A stretch of 64,000 nt of DNA from Eledone cirrhosa (taxonomy: Eukaryota): positions 342,116,001 through 342,180,000 of the forward strand of contig OZ024741.1 in assembly GCA_964016885.1 (NCBI GenBank). The letters are read 5' to 3'. The notes beneath the pieces were generated by a model that saw only the letters and a program-made list of their open reading frames with translations, made no database searches and had not been told where the DNA came from. Within the stretch, counting starts at the first letter, position 1, and every line of letters begins with the position of its first letter. Positions 2,073-27,192 of the stretch are shown here, one piece after another. The translations under genes were made by a program, and so were the position numbers.

Positions 2073-5000
2073 ATCATCATCATCATCATCATCATCATTT
2101 TACGTCCGCTTTTCCCTGCTTGTAAGGGTGGGATGGGTCCTATTCAGCACAGCATCTCTCCACTTGTCCCGGTCCTTCATCATCACCACCTTCGTCCATG
2201 TTTTTCATGGTCTACTTCTACCACATCTTCCTTCAACTGGCATTTCCTGGCACTTCTTCACCCATTGGTCATCCTTCATGCGCATAACATGTCCATACCA
2301 TCGCAGTCTCCTCTCTCGCACACTACAATCTATCCCTCTCAGACACAGTTTCTCTCTCATCCATGCTCGGTCATTCACGCACATCAACATTGCACATCCA
2401 ACGGAGCATGTTTGCCTCATTTCTATCCAGCCGTCGCATATCCTCTGCAGTTGCTGCCCATGTCTCACTACCATGCAGCATCGCGCTCCTCACACAGGCA
2501 TCATATAACCGGCCTTTCATACACAGGGAGAAACCCTTCTTCGTCAGCAGAGGAAGCAGCTCCCTAAACTTCTTCCAACCCGTCCTTATTCTAGATACTA
2601 TGGCCTTGGAACACCCCCCTCCCATGCTAATCTATCTCCTAGGTACCGGAAACTATCTCGGCTTATCACCTTCTTAGTACCCACCTGCATTTGAAAAATG
2701 TGTCTACCAATGCGACTTCTACTGTCTAATTTCCCTGTACATCTACTGCATACATATTTCTCCCTACCTGTTAGTTTGCCTGCTATCCTGCTACATCTCT
2801 TGTGTACCCAAGATCTGCATTGTATGCATTTTATAGAATTTATACCAGTTCCTTTTCTGCATATCGAACATGGTCATTTCCCTGACGGAATCATAGTTTT
2901 GTCCTCTTTTCTACTCATCAACACTTTTGTCTTAGCTAGGTTCACTCTCAGTCCTCTTGCTTCCAATTGCTGTTGCCATAGCCAGAATTTATTCTCTAGC
3001 TCCTCTACTGATTCTGCTATAAGAACCAGATCGTCAGCATAGAGAAGTTCCCATGGACAGCCAGTCTTAAACTCCACTGTTATGGCTTGGAGGACTATAA
3101 CGAACAAGAGCGGGCTGAGGACCGAACCTTGATGTACTCCTACTTGTATCTGGAATTCCTCACTAAACTCCATTCCTACCCTCACTTTACTGACAGCACC
3201 ACTGTACAAAGTTTGCACTGTCCTCACAAGCCATTCCTCAACACCTAGTTTCCTTAGGGACCACCAGATGACAGATCGAGGTACCCTATCAAAGGCCTTC
3301 TCTAAGTCAACAAAGGCTAAGTATAGTGGCTTATTCTTCTCTAAGAACGTCTTTTGTAATTGTCTCACCAAGAAGAGGGAATCTGTTGTACTTTTCTGAG
3401 GCACAAAACCAAACTGCATCTCATCTAGTTTGACCCTTTCTCTAATTAGTTGTGCTAATATCCTTTATACCACTTTCATAACCTGATCCATCAGTTTTAT
3501 ACCCCTATAATTGCTCCTCTCCAGAGCATCCCCTTTACCTTTGTAGCAATTTATGAGAATACTGCTGCACCAGTCTTTGGGTATGACACTGCCATATATA
3601 GCCTGATTGATGATGCGTGCAACCAGTTTAGTGCCTATGTCCCCTAATACCTTCAGCATCTCAGCAACTATCCCCGACGGTCCAGCGGCCTGACCATTTT
3701 TCATTTCCTTAATCGCCTCTTGGACCCTATATTCGTCAATCTCAATAGCTGGTTCCTCTGTCAGATCTACTGAGGGTAATTTCTCTCTCTCCCATTCGTT
3801 CTCCACATTCATCAGTCTCTCATAATGACATTTCCAGGCCTCCTTTTTCTGATCATTCGTGACACTAAGTACACCGGCATCATTCCGGACACATTTATCT
3901 CCAACAACATCCTGATTTGCATTGACACACTGCCTTGCAATGTGGAACACTGTACGTCTCTGATCTTCCCATCACAGAACATTGACAAACCTCCTACTCT
4001 CAGCCTCCCTGCGTGCTAAGTACACCTGACATCTAGTTTCTCTCTTAGCGGCTGTATATCCTTCTCTACTCCCACCCTTTTTCCAAGCCTTCCATGCTAG
4101 TCTTTTGTCTCTAATGGCCTTATCTACCATGCTGTTCCACCACCAGGTCACTCTCTGTCTGGTTGGAGCTCTGCTCCAGCCACAAGTTTCATCAGTAGCC
4201 TGCAGTAAGTTGTCACATAAGAAATTCCAGTTATCATCTATGTCACACGACTCTAAATCGTCTTCTTTTTCGTCATACACATCTTGAAGGGCTTTCCTAA
4301 ATTTGTATTTTAGTGAAAGGTCTTTTAGCTTCCAGGCCTTTCTTCTCCACACTTTCCTGTATGTCTCATTCCGTCTCTTGCTTACTGAGATATCACTAAC
4401 GACTAACCTATGCTGTGGGGTACATTCTTCCCCAGGGTATGCCTTGGTATTTGACACCATCTGCCTGTCCCGCTGCCTAACTAGTAAGAAGTCAATCTGG
4501 CTTATGTGCCCGCCTGATTTGTAGGTTATTAGGTGGTTGACAGGTTTCTGGAAGTTAGTGTTGCAAATGGTTAGTGTACTTGCATCACAAAATTCAAGAA
4601 GTCTCACTCCTTCATTTCTTGAGTCGTAACCGTGCCCACCATGTACCCCAGTGTAACCATCCTGGAGCTGTCCAACATGACCATTGAAGTCCCCTGCTAG
4701 CATAACGATGTCTCCATCCTCTGTCGTTGCAGCTGTTTGTAAAAGTTGCTCGTAAAAGCAGTCTTTCTCTTCTTTAACTAGGCCTGCCTGGGGAGCATAG
4801 GCAGAGATGATTGTCAGTAGTCTCCTGCCTACAACTAATCTAAGCTTAATTATTCTATTATTAACTCGAACTACCTCTATTGTCTTATCAATACATCTCT
4901 CAGCCAGGAAAATGCCTACTCCCCCTAACCCATCATCCTTAACTACCCAGAAAAGCTTATAACTAAGATGTTTGCCTGCGATTAGTCTTGCAGGGGCACC

Positions 5001-5450
5001 TCTCCATCTCACCTCTTGCACGCAGTACACATCCACATGTATTCTCTCCAGCATCTCCACTATTTCACCAGATCTACCTGTGAGAGTGCCAACATTAAGT
5101 GTTGCAACTCTGAGATGTGACGTCTTCATATTCTTGTTCCTTTTCCTGTAGTGTGATTGCTTGAAGACGGTCGGGGGGTTCTCGCACATGGCCACACCAG
5201 CCACCCCACTACCGTGCGCAGCCCTAACATGGTTAGTGTTACTGCTGTTTACGCAGTTATTGCGATATATATTTGTTATTGTGCTCATAATTGTTTTGGC
5301 ATTAATACACTGCTTGGATGCCCTTCCTAACACCAGTGCCACTTTACAGCATTGACTGGGTGCTTTTATTCGTGCCACCAGCACTAGAGAGGATGTCTTA
5401 CTGGACTCATGGGCCCTCTCTATCCCTCCATTTTACAGCATGGTCATAAC
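2073..5450 (-). mobile_element. Near full-length RTE-clade LINE (APE endonuclease + RT + PHD insert), disrupted by stops and frameshifts
   Basis: ORF pieces 3972-5384 (LNVGTL, VQEVRW, AGDFNGHVG, QIDFLL), 3465-3950, 2874-3419 ([25 protein letters not shown]), 2205-2625 (LRWYGHVMR); (GAT)n tail. Confidence 0.95.
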
Positions 5451-5489
5451 AATAATAACAATAATAATAACACTATTAATAATTATTAA

Positions 5490-5757
5490 TTAATGCAATC
5501 GTGCAATGCCTCTGCGTGAAGAATATTTTTAAAGTGAGGAAAGACTGTGCACTGAGCCAATCCCACTCTCTGAGCAACAGTAGCTATAACCATCGGTAAC
5601 TACTGAGACGCAGGTTTTATGTCGGAGTTAATCCAGTTTCCTGAGATGCCTTCTCTTCTCCTAGAAGAATGCCCTGACAAGGGCTGGGGGTCCTTCACTC
5701 CCAGTGGTTTAACTGTGTGATTGGCTATCCAGCCCGATTATTTCTATGTCCCGCGCA
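5490..5757 (-). mobile_element. Short RTE-5'UTR-like repeat related to 16965-17560
   Basis: Shares gacccc..agcc.ttgtca.ggca...ttctaggagaag and agagagtggga.tggct..gtgca blocks with the element at 17.2-17.4 kb. Confidence 0.5.
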
Positions 5758-5769
5758 AAAAAAAAAAAG

Positions 5770-5975
5770 ATAATAATAATAATAATTGTTTCTACTTTAG
5801 GCACAAGGCCAGCAAATTACCCAGTGCATTACTGATACTTTATTTTATCGACCCCGTAAGGATGAAAGGCAAAGTCAACCTCGGCGGGATTTGAACTCAG
5901 ATCGTAAAGGGACGTAACTATGCTGGAAGGCATGGCGTCCGACCCTCTACCGATACTGCCAATCCACCGCCCTTT
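5770..5975 (-). mobile_element. tRNA-derived SINE (dominant family in the window)
   Basis: Head ggcggtggattggcagtatcggtagag with B-box GAGTTCAAATCC, body gactttgcctttcatcc...gtcgataaaataaagta, (ATT)n tail. Confidence 0.85.
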
Positions 5976-6069
5976 AATAATAATAATAATAATCACTTAT
6001 TGACACTAATACGTACGACACACACACTCACTTACACACCAACACTCATGCATACAAACACACACACAT

Positions 6070-7317
6070 GCCAAGACTAAGGTCCTTATAAGTAGACGAG
6101 AAAACAGAACCCAGATCCCCTCAGGGAAATGGCCTTGCTCAGTATGTAGGAAAGGTGTAGGTAGGAACTCCATTCTCTGCCCCAAATGCAAACAATGGGT
6201 ACACAAGAGATGTAGCGGGATCTCAGGAAGCTTAATTAAGAATGTAGGATTCACATGCAGCAGCTGTGCTGAAACAGCAAGCAAACAGCCACAGGAAACA
6301 AGTACCACCAATCTCTGGGAGGGCCCTGTAGAAACAGTAGACAGCTTCTGCTACCTAGGTGACCGAATTAGCAACGGAGGTGGGTGCTCAGAAAGTACAA
6401 TAACTAGGGTAAGAACGGGATGGAAGAAGTTTAGGGAACTACTACCACTGCTAGCTGCAAAAGGCTTCTCCCTCAGAATGAAAGGCAGACTGTATGATGC
6501 GTGTATCCGAACAGCGATGTTGCATGGTAGTGAGACCTGGGCGCTGAAGGTGGAAGACTTACGTAGATTAGAGAGAAACGAAGCCTGCATGCTCCGATGG
6601 ATGTGTAACAGTAATATACGTGAACGACAAAGCATAAAGGAATTGAGAGAGAGACTGAGCATAAGAGGAATCAAATGCTGCGTGCAGGAGAGGTGGTTAC
6701 GCTGGTATGGACATGTGATGCGTATGAAGGATGACAGCTGCATAAAAAGGTGCAGAGCACTAGAAGTTGATGGAAACCGCGGAGTGGGGAGACCCAAGAT
6801 GACTTGGGATGAGGTGATAAAAGCCGACCTTACCCAACTACACCTCTCAAAGTCAATGACACACGACCGTGACTTCTGGCGTCACGCAGTAATACAGGGT
6901 ACCCGACCTCCCATGGGTACATGCTGAAGCATATAAACAATATGCCCCTCCCCCCCCACCGCAAGGTGGTCGTGGAGGTGCCACGGCAAAAAAGCACCCA
7001 GCCCACACTGTAAAGTGGACGTGTAGGCGCCACGAAAAAGCACCCAGCACTCACTCGTGGAGGTGCCACGGCAAAAAAGCACCCAGCCCACACTGTAAAG
7101 TGGACGTGTAGGCGCCACGAAAAAGCACCCAGCACTCACTGTAAATGAGGTTGGTGTTAGGAAGGGCATCCAGCTGTAGAAATCAAGCCAGATCAGTTCC
7201 TGTATGAGCAAGGCATGGTCAGCCGACCAGACACTGCCCACAACAGGACAACCCGTCTAACCCATGCTAGCGTGGAAGAACGGACGTAAAACGGTGATGA
7301 TGATGATGATGATGATG
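6070..7317 (+). mobile_element. 5'-truncated RTE LINE (PHD insert, RT C-terminus, repeat-bearing 3'UTR, (GAT)n tail)
   Basis: ORF 6478-6927 LHGSETW/LRWYGHVMR/GRP; inserted in a compound CA repeat present on both flanks. Confidence 0.92.
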
Positions 7318-16964: not shown

Positions 16965-17560
16965 ATGGTGGCTGCCAACTCGTTTTCGAGTACGGCCACT
17001 ACTTTATATCCATGTAGGAGAACCCCTACCAATGCGCTGAATGAGTGTGACTTTTTAGTCCAGCCAGCGACTTGAAAACTCTGGTACAAACACTACACCT
17101 GTGACAATTATTGACACATAGTGCTGGGCCCATGGTACCACGTGACGACAAGTGCAGAGAGATCTCCAGATATAAAGCAATGCCTGTGCCGCAAAGCTTT
17201 TATAGTGAGCAAAGGCACTGCACAAAGCCAGTCCCACTCTCTTAACCAAGATGATATTTACCAAAAAGAAGAACAAATCAACATCATTGGATACCATCAG
17301 GGTTGCAGGTGTTATATCAGAGTTTTCCTTCTCCTAGAATTCTGCCTTGACAAAGGCTAAGGGGTCATCTCTCCCGGTGATTTTGGATGGCCATTGACTC
17401 TTAAGAGCTCCTTTTCCCTTTGACAGGTTTTGTTTTTAGTCCTGCAGGATGTCCAAAGTCACCCTCCTCACCAAGAAACCTTGGTGGGGTTGCCAGTTTA
17501 GTCGCCAACGACACAGGTTGTACTGGGATACATGTTACCAGTAGCACCAGCTGGTGACCT
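16965..17560 (-). mobile_element. ~600-bp non-autonomous RTE-derived bipartite element (structured 5' leader + 3' end)
   Basis: RTE-type leader (ctaggagaaggaaaactctgat), C2H2 remnant [14 protein letters not shown], terminal ctcg-aaaa-cgag hairpin, (TA)n tail. A second 3' end of the same type lies at 17565-17630. Confidence 0.6.
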
Positions 17561-17668
17561 GACATACATACATACTTACATACATACATGATGGCTTCCC
17601 CCTCGTTATCGAGTATGGCCATTGCACGAGAAGAAAAAAAATAAAATAAATAAAATAAAATAAAATAA

Positions 17669-17704
<36 letters not shown>

Positions 17705-17715
17705 AAAAAAAAAAG

Positions 17716-17752
<37 letters not shown>

Positions 17753-17899
17753 CATACATATATACATACACACATACATACACACACATACATTAATAAC
17801 AATAATAATAATAATAATAATAATAATAGCAATAACAACAATGACGACAACAACAATAATAATATACATATTCATATATATATACACACACACGCAGTC

Positions 17900-18155
17900 A
17901 TCTTCGCAGTCATCTTTGCAGTCATAAAGTAAGACCAGTGGTTGACTACCAGGCTGCTGTTGGAGATGCTACTCATCATGCTTGCCAAACATGTGGTAAT
18001 CAGCAGGAGGGCTCAAGCGACATGCAAAAGTACACGAACTCCAACCACAGCCGACTATTCCCAGTAAATGTTTTGGTTGCCGACTCTGTGCAAGACATTT
18101 TAGATCATTGGCTGGGCTAAAAAGCCACATTCGATCGCAGCACTGTTAGTTGTTA
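17900..18155 (+). mobile_element. LINE (RTE-like) C-terminal fragment with two C2H2 finger remnants
   Basis: CQTCG..SAGGLKRHAKVH and [22 protein letters not shown] across a frameshift. Confidence 0.6.
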
Positions 18156-18156
18156 T

Positions 18157-18191
18157 CGTGTGTGTATGTGTGTGTAGATATGCTTATGTGC

Positions 18192-18228
<37 letters not shown>

Positions 18229-19070
18229 CGCACACATACATACACATATATATATATATACACACATACGCACACACACACATTCTATATATATTATATA
18301 TACACACCATATATATATATTATACATATATATATATATACTACATATATATATATACTATACACATACATACATATTATACACATATATATATTTTATA
18401 TATACATATATATATATATTTTATACACATATACACATACACATTATACATACATATATATTATACATATTCTATACATACATATAAATATATTTCATAT
18501 ACAGATATATATATATTTTATATACATACATATATATATTTTATATACACACATATACATATATATATTTTACACATATACACATATATATTTTATATAT
18601 ATACATATATATAAAATATATGTGTGTATATATATAAAATATATATAGTGTATATATAGTATATATATAAAATATGTATATGGTATATGTATATGGTATA
18701 TGTATATATCCCATACATATACCATATATATATATTTTATATATATACTATATATACATTTTATATATATATAAAATATATATATGTGTGTATACACATG
18801 TGTATACACACATGTGTATACACACATATATATATTTTACATACATATATATATATATCCTACACATATACCATATATATATTTTATATATATACTATAT
18901 ATATATTTTATATATACACTATATATATTTTGTATATATACCATATATATATCCTACACAGATATCATATACATCCTATACATATCTTATACATATATTA
19001 TATATATCCTATACATATATATATATATATATCTCATATACATATATATATATATATATCTTATATACAT
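18157..19070. repeat. Compound (TA)/(CA)/(TACA) microsatellite field
   Basis: Low complexity; source of the YI-repeat ORFs. Similar fields at 341-408, 19905-20115, 20290-20420, 20870-21240, 41965-42060. Confidence 0.95.
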
Positions 19071-19905
19071 ATCATCATCATCATCATCATCGTTTAACGT
19101 CCGTGATCCACACCTGCATGGGTTTGGACGGGAGTTTTCCCACTTGCTCGCATAGGACTGTCTGGCGGGTTTTCTACAGCTGGATGCCCTTCCTAACACC
19201 AACCACATTTACAGTGTGGGGCTGGGAGGTTTTTACCGTGTTGCCTACACGGCCACATTACAGCGTGGACTGTGTGTTTTTTTTGTCGTGACACCTACAC
19301 GATCTCATTTGTTTCGGCCTGGATGTTGTGGCACCAACATAACTTTACATTGAAAGGGGCGGTGTGGATGGGGGGGGGGGGGGGGGGGGATTTTGTTAGA
19401 GATGCCTACTGACTGTAGTAGGTTTTACTTTGTATTTAGGTAAGGCAGGTCTTCTCTATTACTGAGTACCGCCAAAGGCCTCGGTCCAGTGATATTGTCT
19501 TGGAGAGGTGTAAGTGTGTGAGGTCGGAATTTATCAGCTCGTCCCAGGTTTTTCTGGGTCTGCCTACTCCGTGGCTACCGTCTATCTTTATTGCCCTGCA
19601 CTTTGTTATACAGCTGTCGTCTTTCATGCGCATCACGTGACCATACCAACGTAGCCTTCTCTCGAGTAAACAACATCTGATCCCTCATATTTCTAGTAAA
19701 CAACATCTGATACCTCATATTTCCTTAGTTCGTTTATGCTTTGCCGTTCACGTATATTACTATTACACATCCAGCGGAGCATGCAAGCTTCGTTCCTCTC
19801 TAGTCTGCGTATATCCTCTGCACACAATGCCCAGGTCTCACTGCCATGCAACATTGCTGTTCATATGCAGGCATCATACAACCTGCCTTTCATTTTTAGG
19901 GAGAT
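19071..19905 (-). mobile_element. 5'-truncated RTE LINE (same subfamily as 9161-12690)
   Basis: [29 protein letters not shown], shared 3'UTR, (GAT)n tail. Confidence 0.92.
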
Positions 19906-20076
19906 CCTATACATACATATATATATCCCATACATACACACATATATCCCATGCATACACACATATATATATTTTTTATATATATATATATATCCTATAC
20001 ATACATATATATATCCCATACATACACACATATATCCCATGCATACACACATATATCCCATGCATACACACATATA

Positions 20077-20111
<35 letters not shown>

Positions 20112-20460
20112 CAAATATATTACACAAAGAGAAGTGTGTTACACAGTGAGATGTGTGTAAAGAATTATTACAAGTGAGTTTTACCGTTACTGTATAGAAA
20201 ACAATATCTACAGGTTTAGCAATTAAATAGAAAAAAAACTAAGTCAGAATCAAATCTCTGAAGTAGAGTTTTAAATTACCAACCTTATAATATATATATA
20301 TATATAAATTCTACATATATATATATTCTACATATATATATATTATATTCTACATATATATACACATATATATATATTCTACATATATATATATACACAT
20401 ATATATATATTCTACATATAATATATTAACAAATGGAAACTATATTTATAAAACCATATT

Positions 20461-20525
20461 TATTTCATTATACATATTTCAAGGACACCAAAGCAAATTA
20501 TGGTGCACTTTCATCAGATAAAATA
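20461..20525 (-). ncRNA. Minimal type-I hammerhead ribozyme motif in the left arm of the foldback (opposite strand)
   Basis: Reverse complement reads tattttat-CTGATGA-aagtgcacca...tggtgtcctt-GAAA-TATGTATA-atgaaata. Confidence 0.8.
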
Positions 20526-20673
20526 TAATATAGATCAGTTTTATAAACAAATATTGACATACCCTTAAAAGAATGCGACCATGTCTGTTGGAACTATCCG
20601 GGAGCTTCCAACAGACATGGGCACATTCTTTTAAGGGTATGTCAATATTTGTTTATAAAACTGATCTATATTA

Positions 20674-20738
20674 TATTTTATCTGATGAAAGCACACCATA
20701 ATTTGCTTTGGTGTCCTTGAAATATGTATAATGAAATA
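20674..20738 (+). ncRNA. Minimal type-I hammerhead ribozyme motif in the right arm of a foldback
   Basis: tattttat-CTGATGA-aagcacacca(taatttgctt)tggtgtcctt-GAAA-T(ATGT)A-TA-atgaaata. 8-bp stem I, 9/10-bp stem II. Confidence 0.8.
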
Positions 20739-20910
20739 AATATGGTTTTATACATATAGTTTCCATTTATTAATATATTGTATTTTTACTCCAAAAATTT
20801 GTTGAGTGCTTTATATCAGTTATAAAAATATTTGCTTGTTGTATCCCAACAAATTAAATATAACTTCTATATATATTCTACATATATATATTTTAGATAT
20901 TTAATATATA

Positions 20911-20947
<37 letters not shown>

Positions 20948-21129
20948 CATATACATATATATACATGTATATATACGTATATATATATACATGTATATAT
21001 ACATATAAATGTATTATATATATATATATTACATATACATATATATACATGTATATATACGTATATATATATACATGTATATATACATATAAATATATTA
21101 TATATATATATATATACATATAAATATAT

Positions 21130-21160
<31 letters not shown>

Positions 21161-21414
21161 GTATATATATATCTATCTCACACATACATACATATATATA
21201 CACACACACACATATGCACACATGCATATAAACATGTACACATATATCTGTATACCTACAGACACATATAAAAAAACACATCTATACATACATCTACTCA
21301 AGTGCTTAAGTTCATATATACATTGATGTGGGGAAGGGGAAATTAATTAAATGTTATTGTACCTCTGAGAGTTTTTCTTCTCTTCAGCGATCGAATGTTT
21401 GAAAGTACGGGTGT

Positions 21415-22017
21415 CATAATAAATAATGAAATTATTGTGTAAAGTGCTCAGGTGCACTACAACTCGTCAATATAGTACATAGAATAATACACAAATGTCA
21501 GGGAAGTACATGTGTGTATGTGTTACTGTTCTGTTGGCGGATCTCGGGAAGCATGGAGGCCTTAAAGGATGCAGTGTCTCGACAGCTAACAACTGATGCA
21601 GGTAGTTTGTTCCATGCTTCAGCAACTCTGAGCATGAAAAATTGTTTCCGAAAGTCATGGGAACTGTGCTGTTTTCTTACTTTGTGGGCATGTCCACGTG
21701 TGTTAGACACATGGAAATCGAAAAGGTACTCAGGGTTGTTGTTGGCAACATGGTTAACAATTTTGTGGGTGTTTACCAAGTCAGTCGCCAGGCGTCGGAG
21801 CTTCAATGAATCCATGCCCAGGGAAGCAAGGCGCTCAGAGTATGGTAGATGCCTGATGGAGGGTATTCGCTTGGTTGCACGTCTCTGAACAGTTTCCAGA
21901 CGGTCAATGTCCTGAGCAAGATAGGGGTTCCAGACTGGTGATGCAAATTCTAAGTGTGGTCGCACCATAGCTGTATACAGCCTTAAATAGATATCTGGAG
22001 AGCGGCTGACAAAAGTC
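21415..22017 (-). mobile_element. CR1/L2-group LINE 3' fragment
   Basis: [15 protein letters not shown]...LETVQRRATK...NTRGH...[12 protein letters not shown]; 3' end gttgtagtgcacctgagcact...(ATT)n. Confidence 0.92.
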
Positions 22018-22084
22018 TCCTCAACTATTTTTTTATTTTTTTCAATATGAAATTTTTTTTAAAGAAAAGAGAGGAGAATCCCGT

Positions 22085-22856
22085 TACTTGAAGATGGAAT
22101 ATCACTTTTTTGTGTTCAGTAGTGGTTTGTATTTTCTAATAAAAAATTCTTCTTTATATTTTCGGAAATGTTCGTTGTCCGACCATATCTTAAAGAAGGG
22201 GAAAATTGTGAAATTTCCCTTTCCGCATGTTGCGAAGTGTTCACTGCATGTGGTGTTTCTGACAGAGGGGTCTCTAATTTGTTGTTTATTTACTCGAACT
22301 CTGTCATGTAAACCCGTTCTGGTTTCACCAATGTCGTACTCTTTACATTGTGGGCAGGTTGCACAGTAAATCAAGTTTTTTGTTTTGCAATTCATGTTTG
22401 CATTAACTGTGAAAGACTGGTTGTTTTTAAAGTAGATTTGTCCACCCTCTTCAATGTGTTCACAAGTTCCGGACCGAGGGTCCCCGCATTTCTTAACTTG
22501 CATTGCTTTGTTATTAGACGTAAATTTTGCCTTGGTAAGCAGTTTCCAGAAACGGTAGTTACTTTTTATTACATTCCATGGTGAATTTTATTTCTTCGTG
22601 AAGATTGTTTATGGTGGAATGGAATTTTTGCAGGTCTTCTTGGCTTCTATTCGAGAAGATGAAGCAGTTGTCTAGGTAGCGTTTCCAGTTGTGATTAATG
22701 TAGGTGGCGAAGTCATGACTGAATGTTTCCTGCAGTTTGGAATGTAATTTTGCCTCCAGGTGGCCCTTAACGAGTGTTACATATGTTGGGGCCACTTTGT
22801 GCCCATGACCGTTCCTTTTATTTCTAAATATAGTTCGTTATCAAAAAGGAAGTGGT
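22085..22856 (-). mobile_element. Penelope-like element fragment (RT remnant + GIY-YIG endonuclease)
   Basis: GTVMG..VAPTYVTL...WKRYLDNCF...IKFTME (PLE RT) and NMNCKTKNLIYCATCPQC..YDIGET...EHF...E.FFI..YKP.LN (GIY-YIG). Confidence 0.9.
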
Positions 22857-23149
22857 GTATATATATATATATATATCGACCAAGCTAACGAAATTCAACA
22901 CATCAACAGATGTTTTGGTAAATACATTTTAACTATACCTTGAAAACAAACACATATACATTATCTTGACAATTATCTTGACAAATTATCTTGACAAATA
23001 ATTTTACACAATTCAACTGTGGTTATTTGTTCTTCGTGATGCAGAAAGAGTTAACAACTCTGTAAATGTAGTTCAGAGAAACACAGAAATTAGCTAATAT
23101 GTGACCCTGTGAATGGTCATTCAACCTGCTAATATCTTCCATCATACAG

Positions 23150-23357
23150 AGTTCTTCTTCTTTGCCCACTGAAAGGGGGGGGGGGGTTTAGAGTTCTCAA
23201 GCACTCCTTCCAGCGGGTCCAGTCAGAAGCAACCAACTGATCCGGCTGGATTCCCAAGCATTACCAGCCAGGCTCATGGATGATATCCAACCATCTTGCT
23301 CGGGGTTTACCCCTGTGTCTCCTACAAGTTAGTTTTGCCTGTAAAATCTGTCCAGCG
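23150..23357 (-). mobile_element. RTE-like LINE 3' fragment with (GAA)n tail
   Basis: ILQAKLTCRRHRGKPRARWLDII...W remnant. Confidence 0.55.
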
Positions 23358-24129
23358 CTACTTTCCTGAGATATTCTTACCACATGTGCATAGAGTTAAA
23401 TTGTTAAAACGAAGGAGTGATTTATTGGTTACTGTAGTCCCAGATATATTATGCATAAAAAAAAAGAAAAAAAATAGGATGGTCATAGCTGGAACGCTAT
23501 TGATTATTACATGTCTGCTTGACAGGACTGATTTAGGGTTGAATAACAGCACAGAATGCACAAATACGCACACAGGTGTGTGTGTGTGTGTGTGAGTGCA
23601 TGAATGTATATGAGTGTATGGATGGATGTGAGTGTCTGTGTATGTATGCGTGTGTGAATGTATGTGTGTGTATGTATGTATGTATGTGTGCATAGTAAAC
23701 AGTGCTGTACTGCTTTCCCCACATTTTCTAATTCTCTGCTACATTTCCATTTAATCCTCCAGGGTAGAGCTTTCTCTATTCTGTCCACTGGGACCATGAG
23801 GTGACATGTGCCTGGGGGTTTGATTTTGGTGAGGCAGAGTGGGGGTGGTTGACAATATTTCATCGACTGGTTGATGCTGTTATCGTTGGCCACTACATAC
23901 ACATATATTTACATTTTACCAACCACACCACTATACCTTACTGTCTATTTAATTTAATCTTTTACTAAAATCGAAAAGAAATCATTTCTATTCTTAAAAT
24001 GAATTTTTTTTTAAATACTTTGACAAGAGAGGCAACTCTTGACAACTTAAAAAATTTTAATGTCTTTACTAATGAAAATAGGAAAAGAGAGATAACTCTT
24101 AACATACTATTATGTGTGTGTGTGTGTGT

Positions 24130-24405
24130 GTAAGACCTCTGTTAATGAGTGTTCTAGTTGCTTGAACAACGAAACAACCTGCACTTGAAATCAATGTACA
24201 AGTGGATGAGTATTCTACAGTCACGTGTACTTTGACGTTGTTCTCAAGGAGATTCAGCGTGACAAGACTGACCTTTGAATTACAGGTACAACTGTCAGCT
24301 GAGTGGACTGGAACAACATGAAATAAAACGTCTTTCTCAAGGAAATCAAACTGACAACCTTGCTTTCATGAGCCCAACACCATAAACACTAAACCATGGG
24401 CCTTC
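24130..24405 (-). mobile_element. CORE-type tRNA-derived SINE (related copies 31870-32020 on minus, 52720-52970 on plus)
   Basis: tggtttagtg...ccttgag.aagac..ttatttca.gttgttccagtccactcagctg block. Confidence 0.65.
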
Positions 24406-25087
24406 ATCACATGCTATTTACAGAATAGGAAAAACAGAGAAAAGGTTACAAAAACAGGAATCTTCCGCCTTGCCTGCACATCTGCAGCCATCTACCACAC
24501 CGTCAGACGAGACAGCAAGCCTGTCCAATGCTCAATCCTCATTGGTCAACATTACTCAGATCAGGCGGCTTTGGAAGATCCCTTTCAAGTAAATTTCATT
24601 TCATAATGCTTTCTTCTAGCTACTATAAACTATAAGTATATTTTTATTATATTTTCTGGAGGAGATTTTGTCCATTTCAACAAGTGACTGTGCATATTTC
24701 AGGATCAGTGTTGGGTGTAGGAAATAATGTTTGCATATTACCAATATCATCCTTGGACAATACCAAAGCAAAAACAATACAAAGAGAAATTTAGGAGTAA
24801 GTGGTTTAAAATTTGGTTAGTAAAGTCGAAAGAAAATCTTAGCATTCCACAAATGTGATATTAATGCAAAGAGTTGACTGTACACATAAAATTTTAAAAG
24901 AAACAATAGTGCAACACGTCTGAAAATAGTGCCAGTAATATAATACCTTGAAATAAAGCCAAGGTATAAAGTATCAAGACTCGAAGGAAATACTTCAATG
25001 TTTATTTGTTGTCATTCAGCTGTTGTAAATACTGACCATCTGGTTGACTTCTGTAAGAATAATATAAACGACAGTGACATAAATGTA

Positions 25088-25906: not shown

Positions 25907-27192
25907 CGAGGTACACTCAAGAGGTTTTGAGCCTTTTATCAGAGAGACATTTATTTAACTCAGATCAACACAAAACTCTAGCCTCCCTCAAAGTAGGATC
26001 CTTCAATTTCAATGCACTTGATGTAGCACTCCAGAAACTTCTGGAAGGCCCCATTATAGTCCTCCAAAGTGAAGGTGTCAAGGGCACTTGTCACAGCCTT
26101 TGTTATCTCCTCCACAGTCTCAAAGCGGATACACCTAAGCTTCTCCTTCAGCTTCGGGAACATCCAGAAGTCACATGAGGCTAAGTCTGGACTGCAGGGA
26201 GGATGAAGGACAGTCTTGATCCTCATATCGGCCAAGTAGTTGGTCACCAGGTTGGATTTGTGGTAGGGGGCATTGTCCTGGTTCAGGTGCCACTGACCAA
26301 ACTTGAAAAGTTCTGGTCTCTCGTGACGAAATCTCTTTCTGAACTGCCTCATAGTACTTTTAACTGTGAATGTAGATAATGCCCTTGCTGTCAAAGAATG
26401 GGATCATCATGAGCTTCACAGTGGAGCTGCTTTGTCTGGCCTTCTTGGGTCTTGGAGAGTCAGAATGTTTCCACTGGGCACTCTGTCTCTTGATCTCTGG
26501 ATCATAACAGTAGACCTAGCTCTCGTCACAGGTTACCAGAAATACAAGGACATTTGGATTCAAAGTGATCCACTCAACCATCTTCTTGCAGTATTCAACA
26601 TGCCTCTGCCTTTGATCTTCATTGAACACTCTGGGAACAAACTTTGCACATATTCAGATTGTCATGAATGACAGTGCACAGTGCCTTCAGTCACTTCAAA
26701 TTGTTTAGCAAGCCTCAGAAGAGATGCATGGCAGTCCTTGTCCAGAAATTTGTGAATTTTGTCAATCAACTTTGGCATTCTGACGTCCCACTCCTTGCCC
26801 ACTTCTCGTTGTCCCTCACCTACTTCCTACCCTCCTGGAACCTCTTGTACCAGTAGAAAAGATTCACCTGGCTCATGAAAGTTAATCCATAAGTGGTTTT
26901 GACCATTTCATAGGTTTCTGCAACATTTTTGAGAGCTTGACATAAAACTTTATTGCATATCGAGCCACCAAGTTGTCCTCATGCCCCAACTGCATTGCAG
27001 AACCAGTCAGTTGTGATAAGACTGGTAGTGTTTATAGTGTTGTAGTGCCCCAAACCTTCAGCCTGGAGAAAAAAAAGATTTGGTATGTTTGCTTATTATA
27101 ATCATATCAAGGATGTGTTAGAGTAACAACTATGCAGGTCAATTAAAAGTGCCTAAAAAGAAAAAGTCTCAAAACTTCTTGAGTGTACCGTG
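25907..27192 (-). mobile_element. Full-length (1286 bp) defective mariner transposon (D,D34D)
   Basis: TIRs cgaggtacactcaagaggttttgag / ctcaaaacttcttgagtgtaccgtg, left TA; transposase NQDNAPYH...HPPCSPDLASCDFWMFPKLK. Confidence 0.92.

Follow-up and report, generated by a model that had tools for sequence, protein, structure and literature searches.

Structure of the foldback locus

The window, i.e., the whole 64,000-nt stretch of DNA analyzed here, contains a foldback with two inverted arms (positions 20420-20593 and 20606-20779). A recount gave two arms of 174 bp that differ at exactly 6 positions and are separated by 12 nt, in agreement with the original prediction of 174-bp arms, about 6 mismatches, and a 12-nt loop. 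The features of the locus are listed in Table 1. When the tail sequence (20783-20866) was searched in the genome, 40 of 1058 candidate matches were scored and all 40 were 100% identical. In genome copies, the arms end either at a short end, near 20779-20783, or at a long end, at 20868, and the window has one of each. The tail is found on the right arm and recurs in many other copies, so that the two sides of the unit differ and its right end lies at 20868, 89 bp beyond 20779. Thus, of the unit proposed earlier (20420..20779), the left boundary stood, but the right one had to be moved through the one-sided tail. Similarly, the proposed loop had the right length but not that role, as these nucleotides are element sequence of the right arm, which begins at 20593.

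Table 1. Features of the foldback locus (window positions). pLTR, terminal repeat of a Penelope-like element (PLE); negative numbers are reference positions counted from the tail end (0).
Feature	Position	Strand	Description
Left arm	20420..20593	-	5'-truncated pLTR that stops at the short end of the element, without tail; reference positions -262..-85
Right arm	20593..20868	+	pLTR unit with tail
5' edge of the right arm	20593..20605	+	Begins with the A at -275 and continues through the 12-nt "loop"; likely pLTR transcription start
PLE tail	20780..20868	+	About 85-89 nt, from short end to long end; right arm only
Candidate 19-bp target-site duplication, left copy	20402..20420	+	Identical to the right copy
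Candidate 19-bp target-site duplication, right copy	20868..20886	+	Identical to the left copy
Minimal type-I hammerhead motif	20674..20738	+	Descriptor and fold check; predicted cut after 20730
Minimal type-I hammerhead motif	20461..20525	-	Descriptor and fold check; predicted cut after 20469, the mirror of 20730

The candidate target-site duplication could have a chance origin, because it sits inside a local minisatellite. Positions 20289-20419 hold a short array of TTCTACATATATAT-like units that resembles the end of the PLE tail, and one of these units makes up the candidate duplication.

A broken PLE remnant with reverse transcriptase (RT) and GIY-YIG sequence was found at 22105-22837 on the minus strand, with the GIY-YIG part at 22105-22587 (Pfam E-value of 0.028, below the cut-off). 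The presence of a GIY-YIG remnant 1.3 kb from the foldback had been correctly anticipated, but the proposed link between both was not upheld: the remnant was rejected as the parent, as P0001, a protein of the parent element described below, had no tblastn match in the window, nor was there a DNA match, and blastp aligned only a 35-aa patch of the remnant with P0001 (E 0.031). It belongs to another PLE clade, with a cysteine/histidine-rich endonuclease (EN). The window also contains the C-terminal remnant of a LINE-like RT at 21501-22058 (-), recognized by eye and with no Pfam match, and a DDE_3 transposase fragment at 25981-26403 (-), with a Pfam E-value of 8.7e-07.

A hammerhead descriptor gave two matches in the 64-kb window, with CTGATGA at 20682 (+) and 20517 (-), and none in 30 local shuffles. 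There is exactly one match per arm, as expected from the earlier claim of an intact core on each strand, and the fold check agreed with the cleavage site proposed for the plus strand. Both motifs have the CUGANGA and GAAA core, an NUH site, stems I and II, and a short self-complementary stem III (AUAUGUAU), and are therefore minimal type-I hammerheads of the kind expected for PLEs. Stem I has 8 bp in both, and 9 of the 10 positions of stem II were paired in the fold check. Stem II closes with an A-U pair; the usual closing pair of the hammerhead consensus is G-C. The Rfam scan of positions 17000-25000 yielded 109 matches at E ≤ 5, none of them to a hammerhead family, and the ribozyme assignment is therefore based on the descriptor and the context of the motifs. 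In a survey of 260 sampled loci, where the descriptor fixed only the first and last base of stem III, 10 motif clusters were found, and the majority stem III was self-complementary in all of them, with five different sequences. This result supports a dimer function of the hammerheads in the parent elements. Within the family, there were too few two-sided changes among 115 unique sequences for the covariation test, as the family is too young for covariation to be demonstrable.

For a single unit of 276 nt, folding predictions did not favor the hammerhead, whose helices had low pair probabilities (0.00-0.20), suggesting that cleavage may be poor without the help of a protein. When the hammerhead fold was forced inside the full hairpin RNA, the predicted cost was 97-99 kcal/mol. 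In a read-through transcript of either strand, the antisense arm comes first, and such RNA is predicted to bury its ribozyme in a duplex, in line with the earlier suggestion that it masks its own ribozyme. Only a transcript beginning at 20593 would avoid the hairpin. The hammerheads in the foldback appear to be passengers. Those of the parents lie in the 5' UTR/pLTR and are predicted to act as dimers via stem III.

Other hammerheads were observed in the sampled loci. A head-to-head pair from a second hammerhead family, with stem III AUGCGCAU, was found in L099 at 8880 (-) and 9011 (+), indicating that foldbacks in this genome arise from other families too. More minimal hammerhead types with palindromic stem III (ACUAGU, ACCACUGGU, AUAUAUAU) were present in L091, L092, L094, L100, L174, L043, and L045.

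The parent Penelope-like element

Each arm is, almost certainly, the terminal repeat of a young and abundant PLE. A search of the 3.0-Gb genome with one arm retrieved 745 candidates; the 40 that were scored gave 52 matches, and the full-length ones were 96-100% identical, as expected for the young family predicted earlier. In one of the loci, L031, the C-terminus of a GIY-YIG endonuclease sits between inverted arms. A peptide search started from this endonuclease gave 50,521 candidates, and the 150 scored had open frames of up to 658 aa. Twenty loci were fetched from this search, selected mostly for long frames, and 19 contained arm or tail sequence, at least in part. Two copies with an RT-endonuclease ORF, L081 and L082, carried all 275 nt of the right arm and tail at their ends, with 97-98% identity, and this linked the arm to PLE ORFs. 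The full layout was observed in L094 and L098, and consists of pLTR, ORF, 3' UTR of about 2 kb, and pLTR, as a direct repeat with a period of about 4.2 kb. Both ORFs are broken, and no intact full-length ORF was found in the 20 fetched loci. In L094, the direct pLTRs share 95% identity, and the ORF begins 328 nt past the 5' edge. Judging from motifs read by eye, RT and GIY-YIG endonuclease are encoded in one ORF in L081, L082, L094, and L098, and this ORF is linked to the arm repeat. The PLE hallmarks were thus found in this family, as direct tandem pLTRs in L094 and as adjacent inverted 5'-truncated copies in the 116 head-to-head pairs described below.

The protein motifs suggest that the parent likely belongs to the Hydra clade as defined by Craig et al. 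2021 (PMC8557442), with members such as Hydra-1_Obim and Penelope-13_HM. The features in common are the C-terminal GIY-YIG, DKT in place of DKG (KSDKTNNLY in the parent protein), the CxCX5C linker (CNCRNKSNC), an EN without CCHH but with CxxC and CxH around conserved E and N (CALCIEE...N...CKH, by eye), a hammerhead near the 3' end, and (TA)n targets. The N-terminal part of Hydra-1_Obim is, moreover, collinear by eye with the parent protein. The family differs from the clade as there described in the N-terminal motif, which is RWR in L094 and L098, a conservative variant of RWK, and in its very high copy number; its tail of about 87 nt and its period of about 4.2 kb with a 2-kb 3' UTR are above the published typical 30-40 nt and <3 kb for Hydra. 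The hammerhead sequence is also different from that of Hydra-1_Obim. In the same paper, Penelope-13_HM appears with hammerheads on both strands, owing to the attachment of an inverted truncated copy (PMC8557442). Pfam searches with the P0001, P0003, and P0004 proteins gave no real match, and the closest named full-length database match of the parent protein was an Argonauta protein, with 41% identity (860 hits among 7997 scored).

Foldback pairs and the 5' edge across the genome

To survey foldback pairs, 190 sampled loci were pooled, one of the samples being anchored on the tail. There were 116 distinct head-to-head pairs: 89 combined a short end with a tail, one had two short ends, one had two tails, and 25 had an unclassified end. 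The tail was, therefore, at one end only in 89 of the 91 classifiable pairs. The samples anchored on neither end gave the same result, with a short end and a tail in 13/13, 29/29, and 22/22 classifiable pairs; a few loci recurred between samples. Most sampled copies had no ORF, and the outer ends abutted TA/CA-rich sequence in 193 of 205 cases. The 89 short-plus-tail pairs had 80 different breakpoint pairs, indicating that foldbacks arise independently, and the recurrent junctions use microhomology. L154 and L155, which are 75 kb apart, have the same breakpoints (-357 and -384..-304) and are possibly a local duplication. Collectively, insertions in this genome routinely give rise to such foldbacks, and the ORF-bearing copies and the short/tail pairs point to the case said to lower novelty, in which the foldback is made of inverted ends from an ordinary PLE.

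The original prediction that the foldback is mobilized as a unit family, as an ambisense retrozyme, did not hold. Both hammerheads were spanned by 63 foldbacks, and both cores were kept intact in 45 of them, but this weighs little in favor of copying as a unit, because the youth of the copies alone predicts it; the self-complementary stem III across the 10 motif clusters also fits such a family. On the other hand, the window junction was common to only four loci genome-wide. Two of these are from an older subfamily, and in one the polarity of short end and tail is inverted. Along with the many distinct junctions, this indicates that the foldback is not copied as a unit. Moreover, the arms are head-to-head rather than tandem, and holding the hammerhead fold in the hairpin has the high predicted cost given above. 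We therefore consider such a family very unlikely.

A MITE or a Foldback-type DNA transposon with long terminal inverted repeats would also have long inverted arms, and the L031 copy (3809-6175; 2367 bp), where 404-bp inverted ends surround a 2.4-kb unit with the endonuclease C-terminus and 3' UTR, mimics an element of this type. However, the asymmetric ends, the variable arm lengths, and the diversity of junctions are not those of symmetric fixed termini, and the partner ORF encodes RT and GIY-YIG, with direct pLTRs on both sides; this origin is hardly conceivable. A fold-back chimera generated during assembly is extremely improbable as well. No bridging read or contig was found among the listed DNA or unknown-kind runs, an uninformative absence, but the arms differ at 6 sites, several of them explicable by independent CpG decay, the inversion ends at the element ends, the flanks are different, and only 4 of the 63 foldbacks have identical arms.

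The 5' edge of the arms was analyzed with coordinates counted from the tail end. A 25-nt motif occurred 176 times in the genome, and the survey covered 70 of the first 78 occurrences; the other eight were the window itself, three second arms, and four entries from L031 and L081. Arms started at -277..-265 in 42 of the 70, versus 1 at -292..-279. Genome-wide counts with exact motifs showed a foreign base just before -275 in 673 copies, before -274 in 244, and before -276 in 103, the -275 and -276 classes being both inflated because chance matches push some junctions one base outward; 609 copies continued past -281. Among the first 30 of the 673 copies stopping at -275, 29 were true boundaries. 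Solo arms directly abutting (TA)n end at the same base, and the edge is kept across copies that are 85-98% identical to the reference.

The arms thus begin at the A of a CCCACT motif, which fits the initiator consensus BBCABW. It is rather likely, as judged from these sequence features, that the A at 20593 (-275) is the transcription start of the pLTR, where cDNAs would run off. Related observations are the Inr-like TCACT and the fixed-length pLTRs described for the rotifer Adineta vaga (PMC3846280), and the internal pLTR promoter of the D. virilis Penelope (PMC2377424). We found neither a sharp 5' edge nor a strict short/tail pairing in a search by title and abstract, whose coverage did not reach the early Penelope structure papers.

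The same PLE origin could also produce the edge through a hotspot of RT stalling or repair at the GC-rich near-palindromic CCGGGAGCTTCC, with the similarity between arms due to later gene conversion. In agreement, some junctions form palindromes, perfect or nearly so, across CCGG or GATAGCTATC, recurrent junctions have microhomology, and an extra G before the edge A, as a copied cap would leave, was not specific (38 vs. 35 at -274, in the first 100 copies of each class, counted by hand). However, the starts are distributed on one side only, with a peak at one base and an immediate drop beyond it, and both the shared end of the solo arms and the constancy of the edge in divergent copies speak against a hotspot. 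We regard this explanation as possible but unlikely.

In 46 long-armed foldbacks, partner arms had a median of 2 non-CpG differences, versus 5 between foldbacks. Sixteen rare variants were common to both partner arms, in 10 of the 46 foldbacks, while permutation gave a mean of 0.46 and a maximum of 5 in 5000. We infer that both arms of one insertion derive from one source copy; gene conversion from arm to arm gives the same signal. Our preferred reading, to which we assign a probability of about 0.88, is that the foldback consists of two 5'-truncated pLTRs of a young PLE, likely of the Hydra clade, placed head-to-head in (TA)n, and likely by one insertion.

Proposed mechanism and relation to known elements

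Typical features of PLEs are an inverted 5'-truncated copy and a tail on one side (PMC8557442, PMC3846280). At AT-rich targets, a purified PLE protein, that of the Poseidon element PAc of Anolis, cuts both strands and extends them, with RT starting at two internal sites that lie downstream of the hammerhead and delimit the tail (Frangieh et al. 2024, PMC11167929). By analogy, the RT-endonuclease of the element, probably as a dimer, would nick both strands of a (TA)n target. The RNA of one source copy would be reverse transcribed from its tail end at one nick and from its short end at the other, and we consider this paired priming probable. Since synthesis would begin close to the mRNA 5' end, both cDNAs would often reach the transcription start and run off there, after which they would be joined by their 3' ends, often via short microhomology. 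The family shares with PAc the AT-rich targets and, if the RT starts deduced here are correct, their position and the extension of both strands. PAc belongs to another clade, and its hammerhead overlaps the ORF start, whereas here the ORF starts about 190 nt past the predicted cut. The PAc protein is predicted to be a dimer, and its hammerhead is protein-assisted and dispensable for insertion (PMC11167929).

Similar arrangements have been described in other PLEs. The Adineta vaga Penelope has an inverted pLTR beside a direct one, with a tail on one of them, but has few copies, usually with the ORF between the repeats, while here most sampled copies are ORF-less (Arkhipova et al. 2013, PMC3846280). 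The Cercyon PLEs of Schistosoma contain dual minimal hammerheads with a dimer-type stem III on opposite strands, 100-700 bp apart, and were read as truncated PLEs (Cervera and de la Pena 2014, PMC4209133). These differ from the family in stem I, of 8 bp here, and the passage on Cercyon does not include an analysis of junctions, tail pairing, or 5' edge. Animal non-LTR retrozymes are also non-coding pLTR-derived sequences with type-I hammerheads, but form head-to-tail tandem arrays, in contrast to the head-to-head foldback, which is not copied as a unit (bioRxiv 10.64898/2026.07.22.740005, as far as the retrozymes are described there).

The foldback is thus a known form of PLE insertion and ordinary as a ribozyme discovery, opposite-strand hammerhead pairs in PLEs having been reported already in 2014 (PMC4209133). 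Such foldbacks can pass for MITEs or ambisense viroid-like units. As a tentative and rather doubtful extension, the thousands of short arms could be a fossil map of PLE integration, in which an RNP always uses both RT starts, each on its own strand, with run-off at the transcription start of the pLTR. The resulting 190-/275-nt units, keeping the +1, internal promoter, hammerhead, and RT start, might be transcribed outward from the loop without an antisense partner and be SINE-like sources of ribozymes, while the read-through hairpin RNA might silence the parent.

We found no mechanistic study of Hydra-clade PLEs in the literature searched. The value of the foldbacks is as a data set of hundreds to thousands of young insertion events, with three base-precise landmarks (the short end, the tail end, and the 5' edge) from which, for a Hydra-clade element, the two RT starts and the start of transcription can be predicted. 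These copies likely record how PLEs begin and end the copying of their RNA.
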